Source: Nitrosopumilus sp.
GTDB lineage: Archaea > Thermoproteota > Nitrososphaeria > Nitrososphaerales > Nitrosopumilaceae
Reading direction: 5' to 3'
DNA: 64,000 nt
Assembly (NCBI GenBank): GCA_965249555.1
Contig: OZ252243.1
Location: 576,001 to 640,000, forward strand
Below, piece after piece: positions 25,731-64,000 of the stretch. Each line of letters begins with the position of its first letter. Position 1 is the stretch's first letter. A model generated the notes under the pieces. It made no database searches. It had not been told where the DNA came from and worked only from the letters and a program-made list of their open reading frames with translations. Made by a program: the position numbers and the translations under genes.

Positions 25731-25803
25731 GGCCCTCGAGGGGAATCGAACCCCTGTCCGGGGATCCACAATCCCCTATACTAGCCACTGTACTACGAGG
25801 GCC
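25731..25803 (-). tRNA. tRNA-His(GTG), encoded G-1
   Basis: Reverse complement G-GCCCTCG...GGGGA-TTGTGGA-TCCCC...GGTTCGATTCC..CGAGGGC-C. Confidence 0.95.
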
Positions 25804-54942: not shown

Positions 54943-55539
54943 CTATCTTCCCTTTATTGCAAAGTCCTTTCGAAGTGGAGGCAAGTCTGCCCAATCTTCT
55001 GGCAAAAGTAATCTTCTGTTATCAGGATGGTTTTCAAAGAAAACACCAAACATTTCAAAAACTTCCCGTTCATGAAACTCTACACTGTAAAATATATCTC
55101 TAAGACTGGGAAGTTTTGTCGCGTCATTTCCAGGAATTGGATTTTCTTCTCGTTGGGCCCTAGTAGATAGGGCGATAATTTGTCTTGCTAATGAAGAATC
55201 AGAATAAGAGCCAATATGATAGACAACTTCAATCTCTTTGTCTTGCGGATAGTCTACGCCTGAAACAGATTCTACATGATCATAGTTTAATGCATCACGG
55301 ATGAACTCTGCAACGTCATGGATATTTTCCCGACTTGCACTAATTCCAATCCTATCTTCTTTAACAAATGTAACTGCAACTTTATCACCGAATTTTTCAG
55401 TTATCTTATCGGAAATTCCTTTCTCAAATGCAGGTAATTCTACTGATTCTTCTGGTTTTTTTGCTACGGGTTTAGGCGGAGGAGGTGTTTTTACTTCAGG
55501 TTTAGCATCAGCAGGAGGATTTTCAGTCTCGGCACTCAT
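54943..55539 (-). CDS. nuoC: NADH-quinone oxidoreductase subunit C
   Basis: EREVFEMFGVFFENHPDNRRLLLPEDW..PLRKDF motif. Confidence 0.95.
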   Translation of the reverse strand: MSAETENPPADAKPEVKTPPPPKPVAKKPEESVELPAFEKGISDKITEKFGDKVAVTFVKEDRIGISASRENIHDVAEFIRDALNYDHVESVSGVDYPQDKEIEVVYHIGSYSDSSLARQIIALSTRAQREENPIPGNDATKLPSLRDIFYSVEFHEREVFEMFGVFFENHPDNRRLLLPEDWADLPPLRKDFAIKGR

Positions 55540-55555
55540 TATACAAACTTCCTAG
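55539..55555 (-). other. Possible orphan 3' end of nuoB (..RKFV*), candidate att site or breakpoint
   Basis: Minus strand CT AGG AAG TTT GTA TAA, with the stop overlapping the nuoC ATG (TAATG), but no nuoB ORF upstream. Similarity to the Nitrosopumilus NuoB C-terminus is from recall. Confidence 0.45.
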
Positions 55556-56236
55556 ATGTCATACATTTTAGCGTTTATTTGGGATTTTATGTATATACCA
55601 GAAGATCGATATTGGGCAAGATCTGTCATTTTTCCAGATATTAGTATGTGATTTTACTATTAAAACAAATGGTTTTGAAAATTCAGCGATTGCTGGATCA
55701 GTTTTTGATAACGCTTCTTTGGTATTTCGGCATTGTGGAAACCATTCATTTTTGACACGTTTGCAGACTAGATTCATCTGTTTGGATCCATTGGAAATGC
55801 TTTGTGACAAGAAAAAAGAGAGGTCACAAACATGTGATGGTTCTCTCCAAAAATACCAAAAAACAAGATGTTAAAAAATGCAAAATCTGCAAACATCATT
55901 TTTTTCTTTTCTAATTATTAATTATGACAATTTCATCATCAAATTAGTAGAATATTTTATTTACACACAAAAGCTAAACCCCCATTTTAATTCTTCAAAA
56001 AAAATTTAGGATGTAATTACAGTTTCTTTATCAAGTTTTCTTTCAAGTTCCACTATAGTTGTTGAGTTAACATCTAAGAGTACATTTTACCAAATATAAA
56101 ATTTATCAGTATCTACTGAAAAAACGTGGGTTTTTCTTTTATGTCTACACCAGTTATTTGTGAAAGAGTAACAACAATATTATCTAAAGTGTAATCTGAT
56201 ATTCCTTCTTTAACAATGATTTGTAATTTTTTCAAG

Positions 56237-56467
56237 TTACTTCTCGACGATTGTCAGATCAACCAAATTGTTACCAAATTTCTTTTCAATCTCGTGTGAT
56301 ACTTTGATGGCATCTTCCCAACTTGAGAATGTTTTTAGTGCAGTATGATCATAACTTTTATCCTTTACAGTCTTGTTTTTAAAATCAGGCATTAAAAGTT
56401 GAGTTTTTTTGCATGAATCCTCATCAATACAAGTCAAACGAAATTCAAAAACAGGCATTAGAAACAT
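56237..56467 (-). CDS. Small hypothetical protein
   Basis: 76-aa ORF with GGAGG just upstream, among decayed small genes. Confidence 0.5.
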   Translation of the reverse strand: MFLMPVFEFRLTCIDEDSCKKTQLLMPDFKNKTVKDKSYDHTALKTFSSWEDAIKVSHEIEKKFGNNLVDLTIVEK

Positions 56468-56971
56468 TCCTCCTTTAATTCCAAATAATAATGTAGGTTC
56501 AAACTAAACAATACATTCATCCCATAAACCCTCTCTAATTCTGTTTGGAATTGTTTGTTCTATTAACTGCTTTTCTATGAATACAGTTTTCATGATACAA
56601 ATCATCTGTTTCATTTAGATAGGATGTGGTTCATATATTTATGATGATCTTAATTAATATGCAGTTAAATATCAAACCAATTTTATTTCCTTATTATCAT
56701 AGGAATTATTTGAATATGGGTGTTCCAATCAGATACAAAACACCAATAAGAAATGACACATAGAATCTTGCTAGGGATTTTTATTTGTTTTGTAATCATT
56801 CCAATGAACAAAACATAATGAGATCCTTTGCTTTCTCTATTTGAATAATTTGAGAAATCGGTTAAAAATGAGAATTGATTATGTCCATGTCTCAATTATC
56901 TAATATTATAACTACAGGATCACATATAAAAATTTTAAAGATTTATACCATACTGATTATGTTTGTATAAT

Positions 56972-57946
56972 ATGAAATTTTTAGATGAAGATAGATTATT
57001 AGCAGAAGTAGAGTTAGAACCAACACAGGGTTCACGTTTCCAACCAACAGGATTCCCATCATTAGGATCTGCAGAATTCACAACTGTGGATAACGAAGGC
57101 AAAAATATTAACTCACTTTTAGTAGAATCTACACAATCAATGGCAAACAGATTAGAAGTTGTTTGTATGAATGATACAAAAACTGAACTTGTAGAAACAC
57201 TTTCTGATTTACCTGTAATAAAATTAAATGATTCAAATGGGAATTTTATAACAAATTCCATACTTGAAGCACATCGCATGAATTCATCATACCTACTAAA
57301 AGGAGAAAAAGGTAAATTGCTTCATAAGATATCAACCGATCTAGACATAACGGATAACAAAACACATGTTCCAAATATTTCAAAATTTGCAGAATTTGTT
57401 TTCAAATATGATACAAACTCCATTTTACACGGATTGTTTTTAGCTAACTCTGACATAGCAGGTGGTAGATACAAACTTACTCGTTCTCTTTCCTCATTTA
57501 TTGAAGCATCAAATATCAAAGTCAGTGTAAGTGGAGGAGTAAAGCTTGATCACATTGATCCAAAAGGTGGTGAAGGTGGAGCAGAAAAAGGATACGGGCA
57601 CATACCATACTCTAGAACAGAATACACAGCAGAATCAATAAAGGCATACTTTAGTATAGATTTGTCACTTATTCGTTCATATGGTCTATCTAATGTTGCA
57701 AATGAATTTCTATTGACATTTGCAATGTGGAAGATTCAATCTTTTCTTAAAACAGGACTACGACTTCGCACTGCATGTGATCTGAAAGTAAAAAATACCT
57801 TGGCTGTAACGTATCCAAACAACGTAACCATTCCAAGTCTAGATGAATTAGATACAGACTTGAGAAACAGTATAAAAAAATGTAAAAATGAAGGACTTTT
57901 TTGTACGGATCCGATAATCGTAGAACATATAGAGACAAAAAAGTAA
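56972..57946 (+). CDS. csb1: Type I-G CRISPR backbone Cas7 (Csb1)
   Basis: RFQPTGFP.LG, LLVESTQSMANRLE, LEAHRMNS.Y, SGGVK.D, G.GHIPY.R and GLRLRTACDL motifs. Start ATG 56972. Confidence 0.93.
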   Translation: MKFLDEDRLLAEVELEPTQGSRFQPTGFPSLGSAEFTTVDNEGKNINSLLVESTQSMANRLEVVCMNDTKTELVETLSDLPVIKLNDSNGNFITNSILEAHRMNSSYLLKGEKGKLLHKISTDLDITDNKTHVPNISKFAEFVFKYDTNSILHGLFLANSDIAGGRYKLTRSLSSFIEASNIKVSVSGGVKLDHIDPKGGEGGAEKGYGHIPYSRTEYTAESIKAYFSIDLSLIRSYGLSNVANEFLLTFAMWKIQSFLKTGLRLRTACDLKVKNTLAVTYPNNVTIPSLDELDTDLRNSIKKCKNEGLFCTDPIIVEHIETKK

Positions 57947-57956
57947 TGGAACCAAA

Positions 57957-59429
57957 TTGTTTTGTATTAGAATCTGTTTTTTAAGTGGAGCTTATCATGC
58001 AACTCCATGGGGTAAACATGTCAACGAAGGAATTCCAGAATGGCCGCCATCTAGTTGGCGTCTTCTGCGTGCAATCATAGCGTCATGGAAAAACACATGT
58101 TCAGATATAACAGAGGATACAGTATGGCCAATTTTGCAAAAATTAATACAAGAACCCCCAGAGTATTATCTTCCAGATGCAAGTGTCTCTCACACACGTC
58201 ATTACATGCCAACATACAATAAACCAACATTAATCATGAATACATTTGTAGTTACGGGAGACAGACCGTTAGACATAATATGGAAATATGTGGAATTAGA
58301 AAAAAATGAAATTGATACTCTTGAAAAAATTTTAAAGAATATGCATTATTTTGGACGTGCAGAGTCATGGTGTACTGCAGGCATACAAGTAAAACCAAAT
58401 GAACCAAATTGTAGCAAGTTTGATGAACAGAGCATCCCAAAAGATGTAGAGTTGGTAAGAGTTTTGGTTCCAAACAAAGGTGTAAAATTTAAAGATTTTT
58501 CAGAACAATTCAAAGAATTAAAAAAAAATAATACAGACAACATAAGTGTAACTACTCAACAATTACAAGACAAGGGATTCATAGATCCGCCAGGTGCAAG
58601 ATGGATTCGCTATACCAGACCAGTGAATTGTTTTGAAGCAAAGACAAACGATACAGTCACAACTGAAACATTATCAAAAGTAACACTGATTCGTTATGCA
58701 GTAGTAAATACAGTTAGGCCAGAAATCAAAGACACATTACGCGTCGGAGATTTAGCAAGAACCGCTTGCATGTCCAGATACGGTAAAAAGAAAAATGGCG
58801 GTACATCAAAAATATTTTCAGGTAAAGATGAAAATAAAAAGCCGTTAGAAGGTCACAAACATGCTTTTTATCTACCAACATACGAGACACAGAATAAAGA
58901 GATAGATCATATTACCATTTTTGCAAAAGGTGGGTTTAATGCAGATGAGTTAGATGTATTATTCTCGTTGAAGAGATTATACCGATATGATTTGATGGAC
59001 ATACGCCTGATCTTTGAAGATTGTGGTACGGTTGATAATTTTACAGACATTCCCATATTTAAAAAAGAGCGTGTTTGGGTATCTACCACGCCGATGGTTC
59101 TTTCTAGACACATCAAATATCGCGGAACGGGATCAAACAAACATATGGTTGATGGTCCCAAAGAACAAATTTCTAATGAAATAAAACAAAGATACGATTC
59201 TTCATATAAAATTAAAGACATACAAATAGATGAAAAACCAACAAACATGCATAATACAAATATCAAACCATTTGATTTTTTCAGATGGCGAAATCATGGA
59301 AGAGTGGGAAGTGATAAGACATACAAAGTTAGATTAGAGTTTGAAGAACCTGTAAAAGGACCAATTACATTGGGATATGGATCACATTTTGGATTGGGCA
59401 TGTTTGTACCAGAGGATTATCATGAATAA
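57957..59429 (+). CDS. csb2: Type I-G Csb2 (Cas5/Cas6 fusion)
   Basis: YHATPWG.HVNEG.PEWPPS.WRLLRA, HTRHYMP, YFGRAESW, H.HAFYLP and GPITLGYGSHFGLGMF motifs. Confidence 0.93.
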   Translation: MFCIRICFLSGAYHATPWGKHVNEGIPEWPPSSWRLLRAIIASWKNTCSDITEDTVWPILQKLIQEPPEYYLPDASVSHTRHYMPTYNKPTLIMNTFVVTGDRPLDIIWKYVELEKNEIDTLEKILKNMHYFGRAESWCTAGIQVKPNEPNCSKFDEQSIPKDVELVRVLVPNKGVKFKDFSEQFKELKKNNTDNISVTTQQLQDKGFIDPPGARWIRYTRPVNCFEAKTNDTVTTETLSKVTLIRYAVVNTVRPEIKDTLRVGDLARTACMSRYGKKKNGGTSKIFSGKDENKKPLEGHKHAFYLPTYETQNKEIDHITIFAKGGFNADELDVLFSLKRLYRYDLMDIRLIFEDCGTVDNFTDIPIFKKERVWVSTTPMVLSRHIKYRGTGSNKHMVDGPKEQISNEIKQRYDSSYKIKDIQIDEKPTNMHNTNIKPFDFFRWRNHGRVGSDKTYKVRLEFEEPVKGPITLGYGSHFGLGMFVPEDYHE

Positions 59430-61782
59430 TTCACCAAACTACAAAAACTTTGAAGCTTTTTTTAAAAAAGCTACAGGATATGATCCCTATCCTTATCAGA
59501 TCAAACTTGCAGAATCCCAAATACCAGCAGTGATTAATGTACCTACAGGTGCAGGTAAGACAGAAGCTGCAATATTATCATTATGGATGTGGAGAAGGGA
59601 ATTAAAAGATGAAAATACACCAACCAGATTAATTTATTGTCTTCCCATGAGAGTGTTAGTGGAGCAGACCGTTCAGAGAGTGAGGAAATGGATCGAAAAT
59701 TTAGGATTAGATGATGTAATTGGAGTAATATCGCTTATTGGAGGTAGTAAGTATGAAGAATTCCAAAAACACCCCAGTAAAAAATACATCATCATAGGCA
59801 CACAAGATATGCTTATTTCAAGTGCACTTAATCGAGCATATGGAAAGAGTCCATATGCATGGCCCGCCTTTTTTGGTCTGTTTAATAATGACTGTATGTG
59901 GATCATGGATGAAATACAGATTATGGAAAATGGTCTCCCAACATCACTACAATTAGATGTATTTCGTAAGCAATTTAAAACATATGGATCATCAAAGACA
60001 GTTTGGATGTCTGCCACAATAAACAAAGATTGGCTGAAAACGATAAATTTTGACGGCATAAAGGATTCAGAGATTTGTAGTCTGGGTAAAGAAGATAAAA
60101 ATCATGAAGAGTTAAAAAAGCGCAACGAGGCAGCAAAAACACTTCACACCGCAGACATTGAATTTAAAAAATATGATAGCAAAGTTGTAAAATATCTGTA
60201 CAGTCTACACAAAAAAGGAACAACTACTGCCATCATGGTAAACACGGTTAAAAGAGCGCAAGAACTGTATGATCTATTTAAAAAAGAAGGATTAGAATGC
60301 AAATTAATTCATTCTAGGTTTAGAGAGAAAGACAGATCCGAATTAAATAAATGGATAAATAACTTGGGCAAAGAGGAAGTCATCATATCAACACAGGTAC
60401 TAGAAGCAGGAGTAGATATTTCTGTTCGTACAATGATCACAGAGATTGCACCATGGGCAAACATGGTACAACGTTTTGGAAGATGCAATAGAACTGGGGA
60501 ATTAGACCAAGCTGACATATACTGGATAGATCTACCTGACAAATTATTTGCACCATATGAAGAAAAAGATATGGAACTTGCAAAAGAAAAATTAAAAGAG
60601 CTGGACAACAAGTCAGTATCTCCAATTAATCTTCCAGACATCACAGAACAGAAAATTTTTGATGTCATACTACGAAAAAGAGATTTGGTGGATCTGTTTG
60701 ACAATGCATCTGACATATCTGGGAATTATGTAGATGCCTCAAGATTTGTACGTACAATTAAGCAGCAATTAAATGTCGAAGTATTTTGGAGAGATGATCT
60801 AACAAATAATGAAGAAGTGCAGAAACAAAACAGACATGAACGCAATGAGATATGCAGTGTTCCAATATATGATCTAAAAGAATTTCTAAAAAAAGCAAAA
60901 GTGGCATACTCGTGGAATAATGTAGAAGAGAAATGGGAGAGGATTAAAGCAGGTAAAATTTTTCCCGGACAAGTAGTTATGATAGATAGCAAAAAAGGAG
61001 GATATTCAAAAACATATGGATGGAAAAAAGAAATTGGAGAAAAAGTAGAGGCATGCCAAACATCAGATAAAAAAAATGATTCAAATGGATATGATGCACA
61101 ATCAGAATCAAAGAATCCAGTAACGCTAGAAGAACACACCAGTCATGTATCAGAAGAGATGAAAACCATACTAGCCAAATTGAAAATCATAGATAAGGAC
61201 ATCAAAGATATCATGACTACTGCTGCCAGATATCATGACATTGGTAAGATACACAATGTATTTCAAGACACATTAAAAAAAGGAATCATAGATAATGAGA
61301 TTGCCAAAACCAAAATATGGGCCAAGAGCCAAAAAATGAGTAAACATTCCATACCAGGTTTCAGACATGAGGTAGTCAGTGCACTAGTATATCTTAAACA
61401 ACCAGGCATAACACAAGATAAAAAATTGCAGAATCTTGTGGCATATCTTATAGTTTCACATCATGGAAAAGTTAGACTCTCATTAAGAGATGTAATTAAG
61501 AAAAAATATGAGGTAAAAGACCAGAAATATTTGTTAGGAATAAATGTAAATGGTGAGACCATACCAGAATTCTCTAGCGATGCAGTATCTGTCAAGGCAA
61601 CTGAAATAGACGTTTTATTAGCAAAAATTGGTCAAAACAATACATCAGAACCATCATGGGTAGAAAGAGCATTGTCTTTACGTGATGAGTATGGACCATT
61701 CCGTCTTGGATATCTTGAATCGTTACTCAGAGCAGCAGACACACTTGCCAGTCAAAAAGAGAGTGAAAGAAGATATGACTAG
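59422..61782 (+). CDS. cas3: Type I-G Cas3: SF2 helicase with C-terminal HD nuclease
   Basis: PTGAGKT, DEIQ, MSAT, HSRF, TQVLEAGVD and QRFGRCNR, then LEEH, HDIGK, RHE, SHHGK and RAAD. Start ATG 59422. Confidence 0.95.
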   Translation: MNNSPNYKNFEAFFKKATGYDPYPYQIKLAESQIPAVINVPTGAGKTEAAILSLWMWRRELKDENTPTRLIYCLPMRVLVEQTVQRVRKWIENLGLDDVIGVISLIGGSKYEEFQKHPSKKYIIIGTQDMLISSALNRAYGKSPYAWPAFFGLFNNDCMWIMDEIQIMENGLPTSLQLDVFRKQFKTYGSSKTVWMSATINKDWLKTINFDGIKDSEICSLGKEDKNHEELKKRNEAAKTLHTADIEFKKYDSKVVKYLYSLHKKGTTTAIMVNTVKRAQELYDLFKKEGLECKLIHSRFREKDRSELNKWINNLGKEEVIISTQVLEAGVDISVRTMITEIAPWANMVQRFGRCNRTGELDQADIYWIDLPDKLFAPYEEKDMELAKEKLKELDNKSVSPINLPDITEQKIFDVILRKRDLVDLFDNASDISGNYVDASRFVRTIKQQLNVEVFWRDDLTNNEEVQKQNRHERNEICSVPIYDLKEFLKKAKVAYSWNNVEEKWERIKAGKIFPGQVVMIDSKKGGYSKTYGWKKEIGEKVEACQTSDKKNDSNGYDAQSESKNPVTLEEHTSHVSEEMKTILAKLKIIDKDIKDIMTTAARYHDIGKIHNVFQDTLKKGIIDNEIAKTKIWAKSQKMSKHSIPGFRHEVVSALVYLKQPGITQDKKLQNLVAYLIVSHHGKVRLSLRDVIKKKYEVKDQKYLLGINVNGETIPEFSSDAVSVKATEIDVLLAKIGQNNTSEPSWVERALSLRDEYGPFRLGYLESLLRAADTLASQKESERRYD

Positions 61783-63865
61783 GATAACACTTGAGTGCAC
61801 ATCAACGTTACTATCAGACTATTTCAAAGCTCTAGGCATATTTCGAATCATGACAGAACAAAGCGATTCTAATATTACAGCATATTGGAGATATGATAAA
61901 TTTGTTTTGGAAACAAGCATGAGTGAAGAAGAAATTTTGGAGTTTATTTTAAAACAATACAAGCCGACGCCTATAATCACACCGTGGAGTTATAACAAAT
62001 ACATAAAAACAAAAGCATCAATCAAAACAAAATTAGATGCAAAAGATGATAGGTTTGAATCATATCGTACGGTAATACAAGAAATAGACAAAATTAATGA
62101 AATGTTCTGCAAGATTTTAAATCTAAATGAAATGAAAAAAGATACCATAACTAAAAAAACAAAGTTGTTATTTTTGCAACTATGTAGAAATAATTTTCCA
62201 GATGAAGCATTATCTTGGCTAGATGTAAATGTTGTGCTAGATGGAACAGATGCAAAATTTGCACCAATTACAGGATCGGGTGGAAATGACGGTAATTTTG
62301 ATATGGCTGAAAACTTTGTCAAGTATCTAATAGAGATGTTTGATCATAATGAAGAATCCAAAAACTTGCTGAAAGAATCACTCTTTGGAGGATCAAGTAA
62401 ATTGGAAGAAACAACTATGATAGGTCACAACCCAGATGGGAATAGTAGTGCAACATCAGGACAAGGTTTTGAAGGTAGATCACTGTCAAACAAGTGGGAT
62501 TACATACTGATGTTAGAAGGAATAATCTCGTTTGCAGGAAATCTGGCTAGACGTCAATCTCAAGGGAAAGGGAAAGCAGTATTTCCATTTACAACAGATG
62601 GCTCACATGTTGGCTATGCAACTGCATCAGATGATGAAAGGGATATCAGAGGTGAGATATGGTTGCCAATATGGAATAATCCTGCCACGTATAGAGAGAT
62701 CGCACATATGTTTAGTGAAGGACGGGTTCAGCTTAATGGAAAACAAGCTGGGACAGGAACAGAGTTTGCACGTGCCATAGTTAGTTTAGGTGTGGAAAGA
62801 GGGATATCGGCATTTCAAAGATTCAGTATTGTGCAAAGAAAAGGAGACGCATATTATTACATCAATGCAGGTAAAATACACACCGCAGATGAATCTGCAG
62901 TTTATTTATTAAGTGAGTTGGATAATTGGTATAATCCAATTTATCAAAAGAGCCAATCAAAAGAGAGTCCAGTGTCGATAAAACGGCATGTCAGAAATTT
63001 TGAAAACGAAGTGATGGAATTTTGCAAATATAGAAAAAAAGAACATCTCTTAAAAATAATGATTCAGGTTGGAAAGATAGAAAAACAGACATCATTGAGC
63101 AAAGAATTAAACCCATTACAGGAACTATCTGCGCAGTGGCTTGATGAGAGCTATGACAATTCAGTGGAATTTAGACTGGCAGCATCCATTGCATCAATAA
63201 AATCAGATAACAACGTAGGAGGAATACGAGAAAACTTGGAAGATATACAATATGGAGAAAGATGGGAACATAAAAAAGAATCAACAACATCTGTGTGGAA
63301 AGAAAATGATGATCTATTAAGGAATATGGGTCGTGTATTGCAAAGACGTGGAATAGATGGTAAAATAAAATCATTGGATGCCATACCAATTAAGGGGATC
63401 ATACCTGCAAGAATGGAGGATATTATAAAATTTCTCAGAGGAGAAGTAGATATGAGAAAAATAAATGACCTAGTTCTTCCGTTATCCATGATATCAATAA
63501 ATCAAAAGACAGAATATCCTTGGAAATCTATGAATAATGATGATATTTACGATATGCCAATACCAGAAGCATATATCATAATGAAGTTGATATGTCCTCC
63601 AGATAGAGATGAAAAAATCCCATACGACACATCAATACTAAATATGTTACATGCAGGAAGATTTGATGATGCTTATGCAAAAACAGCATACATACTACAT
63701 TCACACATGCGATCACCATTAAAATATTCAAAAATAAACGGCATGCCTAAAATATTGATTTCAGATATCATTAAAAAAAATATAATGGCGTCACTATTGT
63801 TTCCAATTTCAAAACATGATAGACAGAAAATGTTGCGTATGGTTACAGTTCAACAAAATTCATAG
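61775..63865 (+). CDS. csx17: Type I-G large subunit Cas8g (Csx17)
   Basis: YFKALGIFR, YKPTPIITPW, GSGGNDGNFD, NKWDYILMLEG, RGEIWLPIW, GVERGISAFQRF and EFRLAASIASI motifs. Start ATG 61775. Confidence 0.92.
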   Translation: MTRITLECTSTLLSDYFKALGIFRIMTEQSDSNITAYWRYDKFVLETSMSEEEILEFILKQYKPTPIITPWSYNKYIKTKASIKTKLDAKDDRFESYRTVIQEIDKINEMFCKILNLNEMKKDTITKKTKLLFLQLCRNNFPDEALSWLDVNVVLDGTDAKFAPITGSGGNDGNFDMAENFVKYLIEMFDHNEESKNLLKESLFGGSSKLEETTMIGHNPDGNSSATSGQGFEGRSLSNKWDYILMLEGIISFAGNLARRQSQGKGKAVFPFTTDGSHVGYATASDDERDIRGEIWLPIWNNPATYREIAHMFSEGRVQLNGKQAGTGTEFARAIVSLGVERGISAFQRFSIVQRKGDAYYYINAGKIHTADESAVYLLSELDNWYNPIYQKSQSKESPVSIKRHVRNFENEVMEFCKYRKKEHLLKIMIQVGKIEKQTSLSKELNPLQELSAQWLDESYDNSVEFRLAASIASIKSDNNVGGIRENLEDIQYGERWEHKKESTTSVWKENDDLLRNMGRVLQRRGIDGKIKSLDAIPIKGIIPARMEDIIKFLRGEVDMRKINDLVLPLSMISINQKTEYPWKSMNNDDIYDMPIPEAYIIMKLICPPDRDEKIPYDTSILNMLHAGRFDDAYAKTAYILHSHMRSPLKYSKINGMPKILISDIIKKNIMASLLFPISKHDRQKMLRMVTVQQNS

Positions 63866-63945
63866 ACAGAAATAGAGTTACAATATAAAGATTCAACATT
63901 TTTACAAGTTGATGAATTTTATAGATTTACAGACTTGTTAAGCAA

Positions 63946-63981
63946 TCTTCAATGAAGCCATAATTTTTTGTTATGGCAATC
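63946..63981 (-). CRISPR. Single type I-G-like CRISPR repeat at the window edge (array probably continues beyond 64000)
   Basis: Minus strand GATTGCCATAACAAAAAATTATGGCTTCATTGAAGA, with a GCCATAA/TTATGGC hairpin followed by ..TCATTGAAG as in I-G repeats. Lies 80 bp after csx17; only one copy is visible. Confidence 0.65.
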
Positions 63982-64000
63982 AGTGTAGATACTTTGTTCC

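Follow-up and report, generated by a model that had tools for sequence, protein, structure and literature searches.

Type I-G (formerly I-U) clustered regularly interspaced short palindromic repeat (CRISPR)-Cas systems of the Geobacter sulfurreducens/Thioalkalivibrio kind are laid out as cas3-csx17-csb1-csb2-cas4/1-cas2 and use a protospacer adjacent motif (PAM) of the TTN type. CRISPR is rare in marine ammonia-oxidising archaea, and how these archaea meet viruses is little known. Here we describe a type I-G locus in a Nitrosopumilus genome (G000; a single contig of 2,230,439 bp, 99.97% complete), as met at the end of a 64,000-nucleotide (nt) stretch that was analysed whole (the window; G000:C1:576001-640000, so that window base 64000 is genome base 640000). 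Four genes in this window very probably supply the effector side of a type I-G CRISPR-Cas system that is complete and chromosomal. What is new about it is its seat in the nuo operon at a recurrent insertion site, an apparent exchange of the effector cassette while the adaptation module is conserved, and a dozen putative integration scars along the chromosome. We lean, if only slightly, towards one account of these features, namely that Cas4/1-Cas2 recently mis-integrated a dozen pieces of DNA, half of them copied from the chromosome itself, and that the cassettes of two deeply diverged I-G lineages were swapped at the nuo hotspot while adaptation module, leader and repeat stayed the same.

Several published systems come close in one respect or another. 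In myxobacterial I-G loci, at least those covered in the relevant part of the source, csb1-csb2 are followed by cas3-csx17 or cas3-cas8u1 (PMC11237760). Sponge-associated Nitrosopumilus bins carry arrays and cas genes, to which the passages concerned assign no subtype (PMC6697440), and the corresponding passages of another study place cas1, cas2 and cas3 only in sponge-associated genomes (PMC9289680). Thaumarchaeal mobile elements carry I-B and type III-related systems, among those that the source treats at this point (PMC6563490), and the CRISPR-Cas systems of Nitrososphaeria have been subtyped in a preprint whose tables may list I-G (bioRxiv 10.1101/2025.08.23.671958). We found no literature naming type I-G or I-U in Nitrosopumilus, Nitrosopumilaceae or Thaumarchaeota, and supplementary subtype tables may list such cases. 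Finally, off-target ('non-canonical') spacer integration by Cas1-Cas2, or neo-CRISPR, is on record (Nivala, Shipman and Church, 2018; cited in 10.1101/148544 and PMC7054753).

The G000 locus shares with the canonical I-G systems the same six protein families, a Cas3 with C-terminal HD domain, the Csb2 fusion, the Cas4-Cas1 fusion and a 36-nt repeat ending ATTGAAGC. It departs from them in its gene order (csb1-csb2-cas3-csx17), its archaeal, AT-rich host and an effector operon that converges on the array trailer instead of lying upstream of cas4/1. With the myxobacterial loci, as far as the source covers them, it has in common the order csb1-csb2-cas3-csx17, 36-bp TTGAAGC-tailed repeats and arrays that also lie away from the cas genes (PMC11237760), yet it belongs to another phylum and domain, and the one Myxococcota Cas3g row kept in our trees lies far from the Nitrosopumilaceae clade. 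Among other Nitrosopumilaceae I-G loci, all but that of G135 fall with it into one Cas3g clade, and all but that of G303 occupy other chromosomal sites (G303, G343, G357 and the like denote relatives' genomes; G343 and G374 are of the same genus as G000).

Effector genes and the array past the window edge

Four closely packed open reading frames (ORFs) on the + strand fill window positions 56963-63865. They encode Csb1 (csb1/cas7g, 56972..57946; TIGR02570, 87 bits against an NCBIfam cut-off of 38, and PF09617, 123 bits), the CRISPR RNA (crRNA)-processing subunit Csb2, a Cas5-Cas6 fusion (57957..59429; TIGR02165, 189 bits, cut-off 45, matched at full length over residues 1-486 of 492), Cas3g (59377..61782; TIGR02621, 705 bits, cut-off 400) and the large subunit Csx17 (csx17/cas8g1, 61682..63865; TIGR04113, 525 bits, cut-off 150). 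The Csx17 match begins at residue 39, and the true start of the gene probably lies some 30-40 codons into the ORF. The csb1 ORF opens at a TTG (56963) and has an ATG in frame at 56972; the TTTATA box that precedes this ATG by about 25-30 nt may be the archaeal promoter of a leaderless csb1 mRNA. Pfam agrees with NCBIfam on the identities of Csb1 and Cas3, and the two together put the helicase of Cas3g first and its HD nuclease last, in the C-terminal residues 584-792. In an alignment of 15 Cas3g proteins of the family Nitrosopumilaceae, its Walker A, DExx and HD residues all fall in invariant columns. No Cas6 match that would indicate a separate cas6 occurs among the ORFs between nuoC and nuoB. 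The GC content of the locus (0.30-0.35) equals that of the surrounding window. An earlier note on this DNA, made from its letters alone, had read here four closely packed genes with intact helicase and C-terminal HD motifs, a type I-G system and a Nitrosopumilus-like host, all of which these data bear out.

The same note saw an I-G-type repeat on the opposite strand after csx17, missed any adjacent cas1, cas2 or cas4, and proposed a possible interference-only module. A hairpin repeat does stand there (63947..63982, - strand; the sole repeat within the window). It keeps the 7-bp hairpin, but since it matches the array consensus at only 24 of 36 positions (29/36 for the repeat type of G370 and G328) it is a diverged terminal repeat at the trailer end. 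Beside it begins the oldest spacer (63983..64000, - strand), and the locus continues beyond the window end. The array occupies genome positions 640019-643538, that is, 19 to 3538 bases past the window, with 48 repeats of 36 nt that read ATTTCTGTAACGATAAAGTTACAGCCCCATTGAAGC on the - strand; 44 are exact copies of the consensus and the other four differ at 1, 1, 1 and 4 positions. The repeat forms a 7-bp hairpin plus a 12-nt tail, the - strand end being ATTGAAGC, and a length of 36 nt with a TTGAAGC end is the I-G repeat form printed in PMC11237760. The spacers measure 35-44 nt and number 48 (45 of them unique) if the one beside the terminal repeat is counted, three trailer-end spacers having been duplicated by recombination.

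A leader of 253 bp follows (genome 643539-643791; it carries a 73-nt insertion at 643692-643801), then cas2 (genome 643792-644139, - strand; PF09827, 65 bits) and a cas4g/cas1g fusion of 561 amino acids (genome 644084-645769, - strand; NF049935, 731 bits, cut-off 560). All six cas genes, the four effector genes together with cas2 and cas4/1, are full length and score above curated cut-offs. On the - strand the order is cas4/1, cas2, leader, array, diverged terminal repeat, and the effector operon runs against it, towards the trailer end. The 64-kb window itself does lack cas1, cas2 and cas4, and three small ORFs in the 1.4 kb upstream of the operon match no family; the note's claim that none lies adjacent fails, cas2 and cas4/1 standing just past the array. 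The apparent absence of adaptation genes is a window-edge artefact. Reading the contig beyond 64000, a check that had been named beforehand, thus overturned the proposed interference-only module, because cas4/1-cas2, the leader and the 48-repeat array lie immediately beyond the window.

On the established type I-G model, the array would be transcribed from the leader adjoining cas2, and Csb2 would cut at the base of the 7-bp repeat hairpin to leave a handle derived from ...ATTGAAGC. Csb1 (Cas7) would form the backbone, Csx17 (Cas8g) would read the PAM, and Cas3g would unwind and degrade the target. Prespacers flanked by a PAM would be picked by Cas4/1-Cas2 and inserted at the leader-proximal repeat, with a second copy of the 36-bp repeat as a result. 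For the G000 system, expression and current activity, as well as the PAM and the crRNA ends, are predicted from this model.

Genomic site, gene order and composition of the locus

The locus sits within the nuo operon. To its left lies nuoC (54943..55539, - strand), followed on the same strand by nuoD, nuoH and nuoI (NCBIfam matches); to its right, past cas4/1, are nuoB (genome 646113-646637, - strand; 202 bits) and nuoA (genome 646677-647051, - strand; PF00507, 71 bits). The gap between nuoB and nuoC, which holds the whole I-G locus, measures 14.6 kb, so that an essential respiratory operon tolerates an insert of this size. In most of the 40 genus genomes compared by NuoB and NuoC searches (in two of which nuoB is at a contig start), the same gap is below 300 bp. 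It is wider in G322 (3.7 kb, with IS6-like and IS630-like transposases), G195 (2.4 kb, with a ParE-family toxin), G110 (2.1 kb, with TnpB/OrfB_IS605) and G259 (0.6 kb); the nuoB-nuoC junction is a recurrent insertion site in the genus.

Between nuoC and csb1, blastn shows a mosaic spacer of 1.4 kb (55540..56962). Its first 104 bp or so are conserved in relatives, likewise upstream of nuoC; 56305-56630 shares 89% identity with genome 2108599-2108917, and 56720-56900, beside csb1, is a solo insertion sequence (IS) end fragment of about 180 bp; besides itself, the spacer has 27 further matches in the genome, of which about 25 hit 56720-56900. Within the nuoB-nuoC interval the cassette has neither element borders nor integrase or transfer genes at its flanks. 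The suggestion that the system rides on a mobile element is half right: there is an insertion hotspot in the nuo operon and an IS-end remnant by csb1, but no carrying element could be defined.

Type I-G occurs patchily in these archaea, as had been supposed. These counts are of genome samples, and an absence holds for the genomes searched. Of 400 other family genomes, 13 have Csx17 (~3%), among them 8 of the 98 in the genus, and it was met in four of 27 genera. A sample of the class recovered the same 13 among 223 family genomes, one of 17 in one other family and none in 160 genomes of 18 further families, or 1/177 across the other families. Gene order was read by tblastn with the window proteins at 15 other family loci in 13 genomes. 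Ten of the 15 have the order of the window, csb1-csb2-cas3-csx17 (order A; in G343, G110, G372, G381, G041, G016, G145, G135 and G052), and five have cas3-csx17-csb1-csb2 (order B; in G303, G291, G370, G374 and G052). Nuo genes lie within the 20-kb windows around these loci in G303 only, and all family I-G loci have 36-nt repeats of the form ...GGCCCCATTGAAGC.

Outside the family, among 76 non-Nitrosopumilaceae Cas3g loci (from the best 80 of at least 596 matches in one-genome-per-species contigs, a set silent on more distant I-G), cas3 comes first in all 67 that could be read, nine being too short; these 67 of the 76, including Thioalkalivibrio halophilus, have the canonical order cas3-csx17-csb1-csb2-cas4/1-cas2. 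The order in G000 had been called permuted. It does differ from the Geobacter type, but it is a known arrangement and the commoner one in the family, and it is in print for myxobacteria, in the part of the source that treats their loci (PMC11237760).

Trees of Cas3g (FastTree, 93 rows; IQ-TREE with LG+C20 PMSF and quick search, 42 rows; both unrooted) agree in joining all family sequences except the long-branched G135 in one clade (support 100), which is sister to Dehalococcoidia/Caldilineaceae of the Chloroflexota (support 99). Within it are two subclades, the first with order-A loci only, including the window, and the second with all order-B loci plus two order-A loci at its base. The complete I-G system is in this sense a family-specific lineage with two effector gene orders, present in about 3% of the sampled Nitrosopumilaceae genomes. 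Among the best 80 of at least 596 matches, the nearest outside Cas3g proteins, those of Chloroflexota, are 41-43% identical; since identity reaches no higher and locus GC equals that of its surroundings, any inter-domain transfer would have been old, and the unrooted trees give it no direction. The note had proposed a horizontally acquired low-GC variant; a recent acquisition from bacteria finds no support in this family-own clade, and the search for a donor by a Cas3 tree, as proposed, ended at Chloroflexota as nearest outside group.

The closest comparison is with G303, where I-G occupies the same site in the order nuoA-nuoB-array-cas4/1-cas2-array-cas3-csx17-csb1-csb2-nuoC-nuoD; the array beside cas2 has 39 repeats, the second array sits after nuoB, and cas4/1 is frameshifted. 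Its repeat is identical to that of G000 (36/36), its leader is homologous, and none of its 38 spacers is common to both. In G343 the locus lies at a different chromosomal site with cas4/1-cas2 directly after csx17 on the same strand, and its repeat matches at 33/36. Identity to G000 is 78-90% in G303 and 76% in G343 for Cas4/1, and 83-89% and 58% for Cas2, but the effectors reverse this: Csb1 is 48% identical in G303 and 60% in G343, Csb2 36% and 64%, Cas3 43% and 56%, and Csx17 36% and 51%. With adaptation proteins near G303 and effectors near G343, the G000 locus is a mosaic of a G303-like adaptation side and a G343-like effector side, its effector cassette being of the other family lineage than that of G303, and inverted. 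Order-A and order-B loci have nearly one repeat, with ends ATTTCC...GGCCCCATTGAAGC, which would let either cassette use the same crRNAs.

Other features of these loci may be noted. In the family, loci of order B have one further small gene, similar at 32-38% identity to about the first 150-180 residues of Csb2 (G303 L018 4832-5371; L015 6524-6958; L016 15596-16051) and without a Pfam match. Remains of mobile elements flank the nuo operon of G000 in a second patch as well, upstream of nuoA (genome 647245-650629), with a truncated IS110-family transposase, a DUF3800 gene and tyrosine-recombinase fragments that are split by a 74-nt scar. Some congeners have extra nuoB copies (six matches in G385, two in G234). 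Large arrays with I-G-type repeats lie a few kb from nuoA/nuoB at G328:C1:1632000-1643100 and G303:C1:1174302-1176091; G328 had no Csx17 match in the family search, and its arrays may be orphan or use another large subunit.

Candidate integration scars and competing explanations

The insertion in the leader is one of a set. When G000 outside its two CRISPR arrays was scanned for direct repeats that are exact, at least 26 nt long and at distances of 30-400 nt, 51 isolated pairs emerged, of which 15 lie at 69-75 nt, where about one would be expected under even distances. We retained sites at genome 16547, 19053, 23778, 202366, 305877, 643692, 649261, 1219275, 1268457, 1882077, 1948572, 2050963 and 2053378. 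Each consists of an exact 28-39-nt duplication (35-39 nt in 8 of the 13) around an insert of 32-43 nt unlike its flanks, 69-75 nt being added in total. The duplications are perfect or near-perfect, which would imply recent integrase action. Among the sequences hit are an IS copy, large repeat-protein genes, a recombinase pseudogene and the I-G leader. Three candidates were set aside: 162032, a 36-nt tandem protein repeat; 1459985, a 69-nt tandem duplication; and 1608017, where the 26-nt duplication resembles the I-G repeat and a decayed mini-array is more likely.

Empty counterparts show a true insertion at four sites. Orthologues of 1268457 in G357 and G322 lack exactly 72 nt, four paralogous IS copies of the 1219275 target lack 71 nt, tandem units neighbouring 16547 lack 75 nt, and in the leader of G303 the sequence duplicated at 643692 occurs once. 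No orthologues of 16547 and 19053 were found in five relatives, and 23778 lies in a multicopy IS that aligns to relatives at 66-73% identity. Other stretches of the same chromosome are the source of six inserts, with insert-source matches of 32/32 (23778), 33/33 (305877), 35/35 (1219275), 32/34 (1268457), 32/33 (1948572) and 36/36 (2050963). The last, which sits at genome 2050998-2051035, was copied from window positions 25745-25780 (genome 601745-601780), a stretch resembling a tRNA gene at its T-arm end. For these six, the distance minus the insert is 36-39 nt and the insert 32-36 nt, and in four of them TT stands directly 5' of the copied stretch in the source.

As a control we took the close congener G357, which has no Cas1 match, and passed its whole 1,884,960-bp contig and G000 through one filter. 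In G000 this left 13 pairs at 69-75 nt, made up of 12 scars and the true I-G repeat pair; site 16547 was filtered out, its target being locally multicopy. In G357 it left six pairs, namely four orphan CRISPR arrays, one low-complexity tandem and one diverged tandem duplication, and thus no locus-specific scar (one genome against one, under the common filter). The small G357 orphan arrays at G357:C1:16241-16570 and 883264-885550 use one different 36-nt repeat (GTTTCAATCTTTATTGTA[A/C]TAGAAATCTATTCAGAG). In G000, arrays of a different kind, tandem units of about 492 bp in giant ORFs, occupy genome 3,700-17,700 and 680,000-705,700; the giant ORFs near 16-19 kb have 2037 and 1747 codons, and one unit carries the 75-nt scar 16547.

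Judged by these features, the scars are probably, though by no means certainly, off-target spacer integrations by the I-G Cas4/1-Cas2, the duplication length fitting the 36-nt I-G repeat and not the 30-nt repeat of the second, I-B system. A process independent of CRISPR, such as an accident of replication or repair or a mobile mechanism not yet described, is rather unlikely by comparison with this, and yet some of the evidence leans its way and counts against integration by Cas4/1-Cas2. All scars add much the same length (69-75 nt), most spacers of the array (35-44 nt) are longer than the inserts known exactly (32-36 nt), and at one scar a 28-nt duplication goes with a 42-nt insert in what looks like compensation. 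One hairpin-forming insert, read from its letters, resembles a tRNA gene's 3' part, the inserts of the weaker sites 19053 and 202366 are 0.40-0.47 identical to the next period, and the control is a single genome. Such a process would have to explain why, for the six inserts of known source, the duplication stays at 36-39 nt, near the I-G repeat length, with inserts ranging from 32 to 36 nt, why TT precedes the copied stretch in four of the six sources, and why the Cas1-less G357, 1.88 Mb in length, has no scars under the common filter. The resemblance to the off-target Cas1-Cas2 integration described so far, in the parts of that work cited above, lies in a repeat-length target duplication around a spacer-length insert at non-CRISPR sites; the G000 events differ in being natural, in an archaeon, about 12 in one genome and half of them self-copied, with a type I-G Cas4/1 fusion as the presumed enzyme. 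If the scars are indeed the work of this integrase, they are rare natural material for studying how a Cas4/1 fusion integrates off target and captures self-spacers, and the genome would record the ruler length of the I-G integrase, the size of its prespacers (32-36 nt) and their TT-flanked source, and would be a live example of how new repeat pairs get seeded.

Other explanations concern the locus as a whole, the gene content, array, leader homology and position of which are direct observations. That it is a decaying relic, its genes intact in appearance and the system out of use, seems improbable. The lack of a virus match for any spacer in the collections searched, the recombinational duplication of three trailer-end spacers, the broken cas4/1 of the homologous G303 locus and an I-B system riddled with IS elements would suit a relic; six full-length ORFs with catalytic residues in place, 44 identical repeats out of 48, and the state of the scar duplications would not. 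An interference-only I-G module carried on a mobile element and served by arrays in trans is very improbable: what spoke for it was the lack of cas1, cas2 and cas4 inside the window and the IS-end fragment adjoining csb1, but directly after csx17 come 48 repeats, a leader and cas4/1-cas2, and the nuoB-nuoC interval holds no element borders, integrase or transfer genes. A misassembled bacterial fragment or contamination, another possibility raised in the earlier note, is even less probable. I-G is mostly bacterial, its nearest outside relatives here are Chloroflexota, and public contigs break just upstream of csb1, at a repeat with a depth spike (56326-56868). Yet one public contig spans all four cas genes (56868-64000), and contig depth is equal over nuo and cas genes (~7000 in X2, ~10000 in X3) in three public runs of one study that hold 97-98% of sampled words and may be the source sample. 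Because of this equal depth, the synteny with G303 and the single 2.23-Mb contig, misassembly is unlikely, and the GC of the locus and its Cas3g in a family-specific clade point the same way.

A few points weigh against the main reading, that of a complete chromosomal type I-G system at this site. The look-up of runs for this stretch listed none of RNA. No public contig bridges 56326-56868, owing to the repeat, and the nuoC-csb1 junction rests on the one-contig assembly and on G303 synteny. The G303 I-G locus may be decaying, and the exchange between the G000 and G303 lineages could have run in either direction. No spacer matched a virus in the searches described below, so that target and PAM were not reached.

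Spacer content and the second CRISPR system

Mapping spacers for a PAM, one of the checks proposed for this locus, yielded no protospacer from the phage, viral_contigs, own-genome or genus searches; the sole hint at a PAM is the TT that precedes four of the six self-derived insert sources. The whole array against 50,697 phage records gave chance-level matches only (11 records, E 0.09-0.3, from Enterococcus and Pasteurella phages), and one 28-nt spacer stretch and one degenerate 26-nt pattern gave no matches each in viral_contigs. Within G000 there is no full self-target, the best match (21/35 nt) lying inside the second array. A search of 150 genus genomes with the array returned related-repeat arrays and one nuoA-matching spacer, and no provirus target. 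That spacer, at genome 640502-640540 with a duplicate at 640652-640690, is 84-88% identical over 37-40 nt to the nuoA of several congeners. With the nuoA of G000 it agrees at 29/37, and because the mismatches fall mostly at third codon positions, it comes from a foreign nuoA allele.

G000 has two cas1 genes, the second of which belongs to a type I-B locus (genome 1,609,811-1,624,500) with about 60 repeats of 30 nt (CTTTCAATCCTATGATAGTTCAATTCAAAC). After the repeats come cas4, an IS1595 transposase, cas1b, an IS66 transposase, cas6, cas8b, cas7, cas5 and cas3; the cas1b match begins at profile position 33, and no ORF of at least 90 amino acids was seen that could be the cas2 of this locus. Finally, an isolated repeat-spacer-repeat unit with the exact I-G repeat lies at genome 1884690-1884801, 1.24 Mb from the I-G cas genes and about 2.6 kb from scar 1882077.

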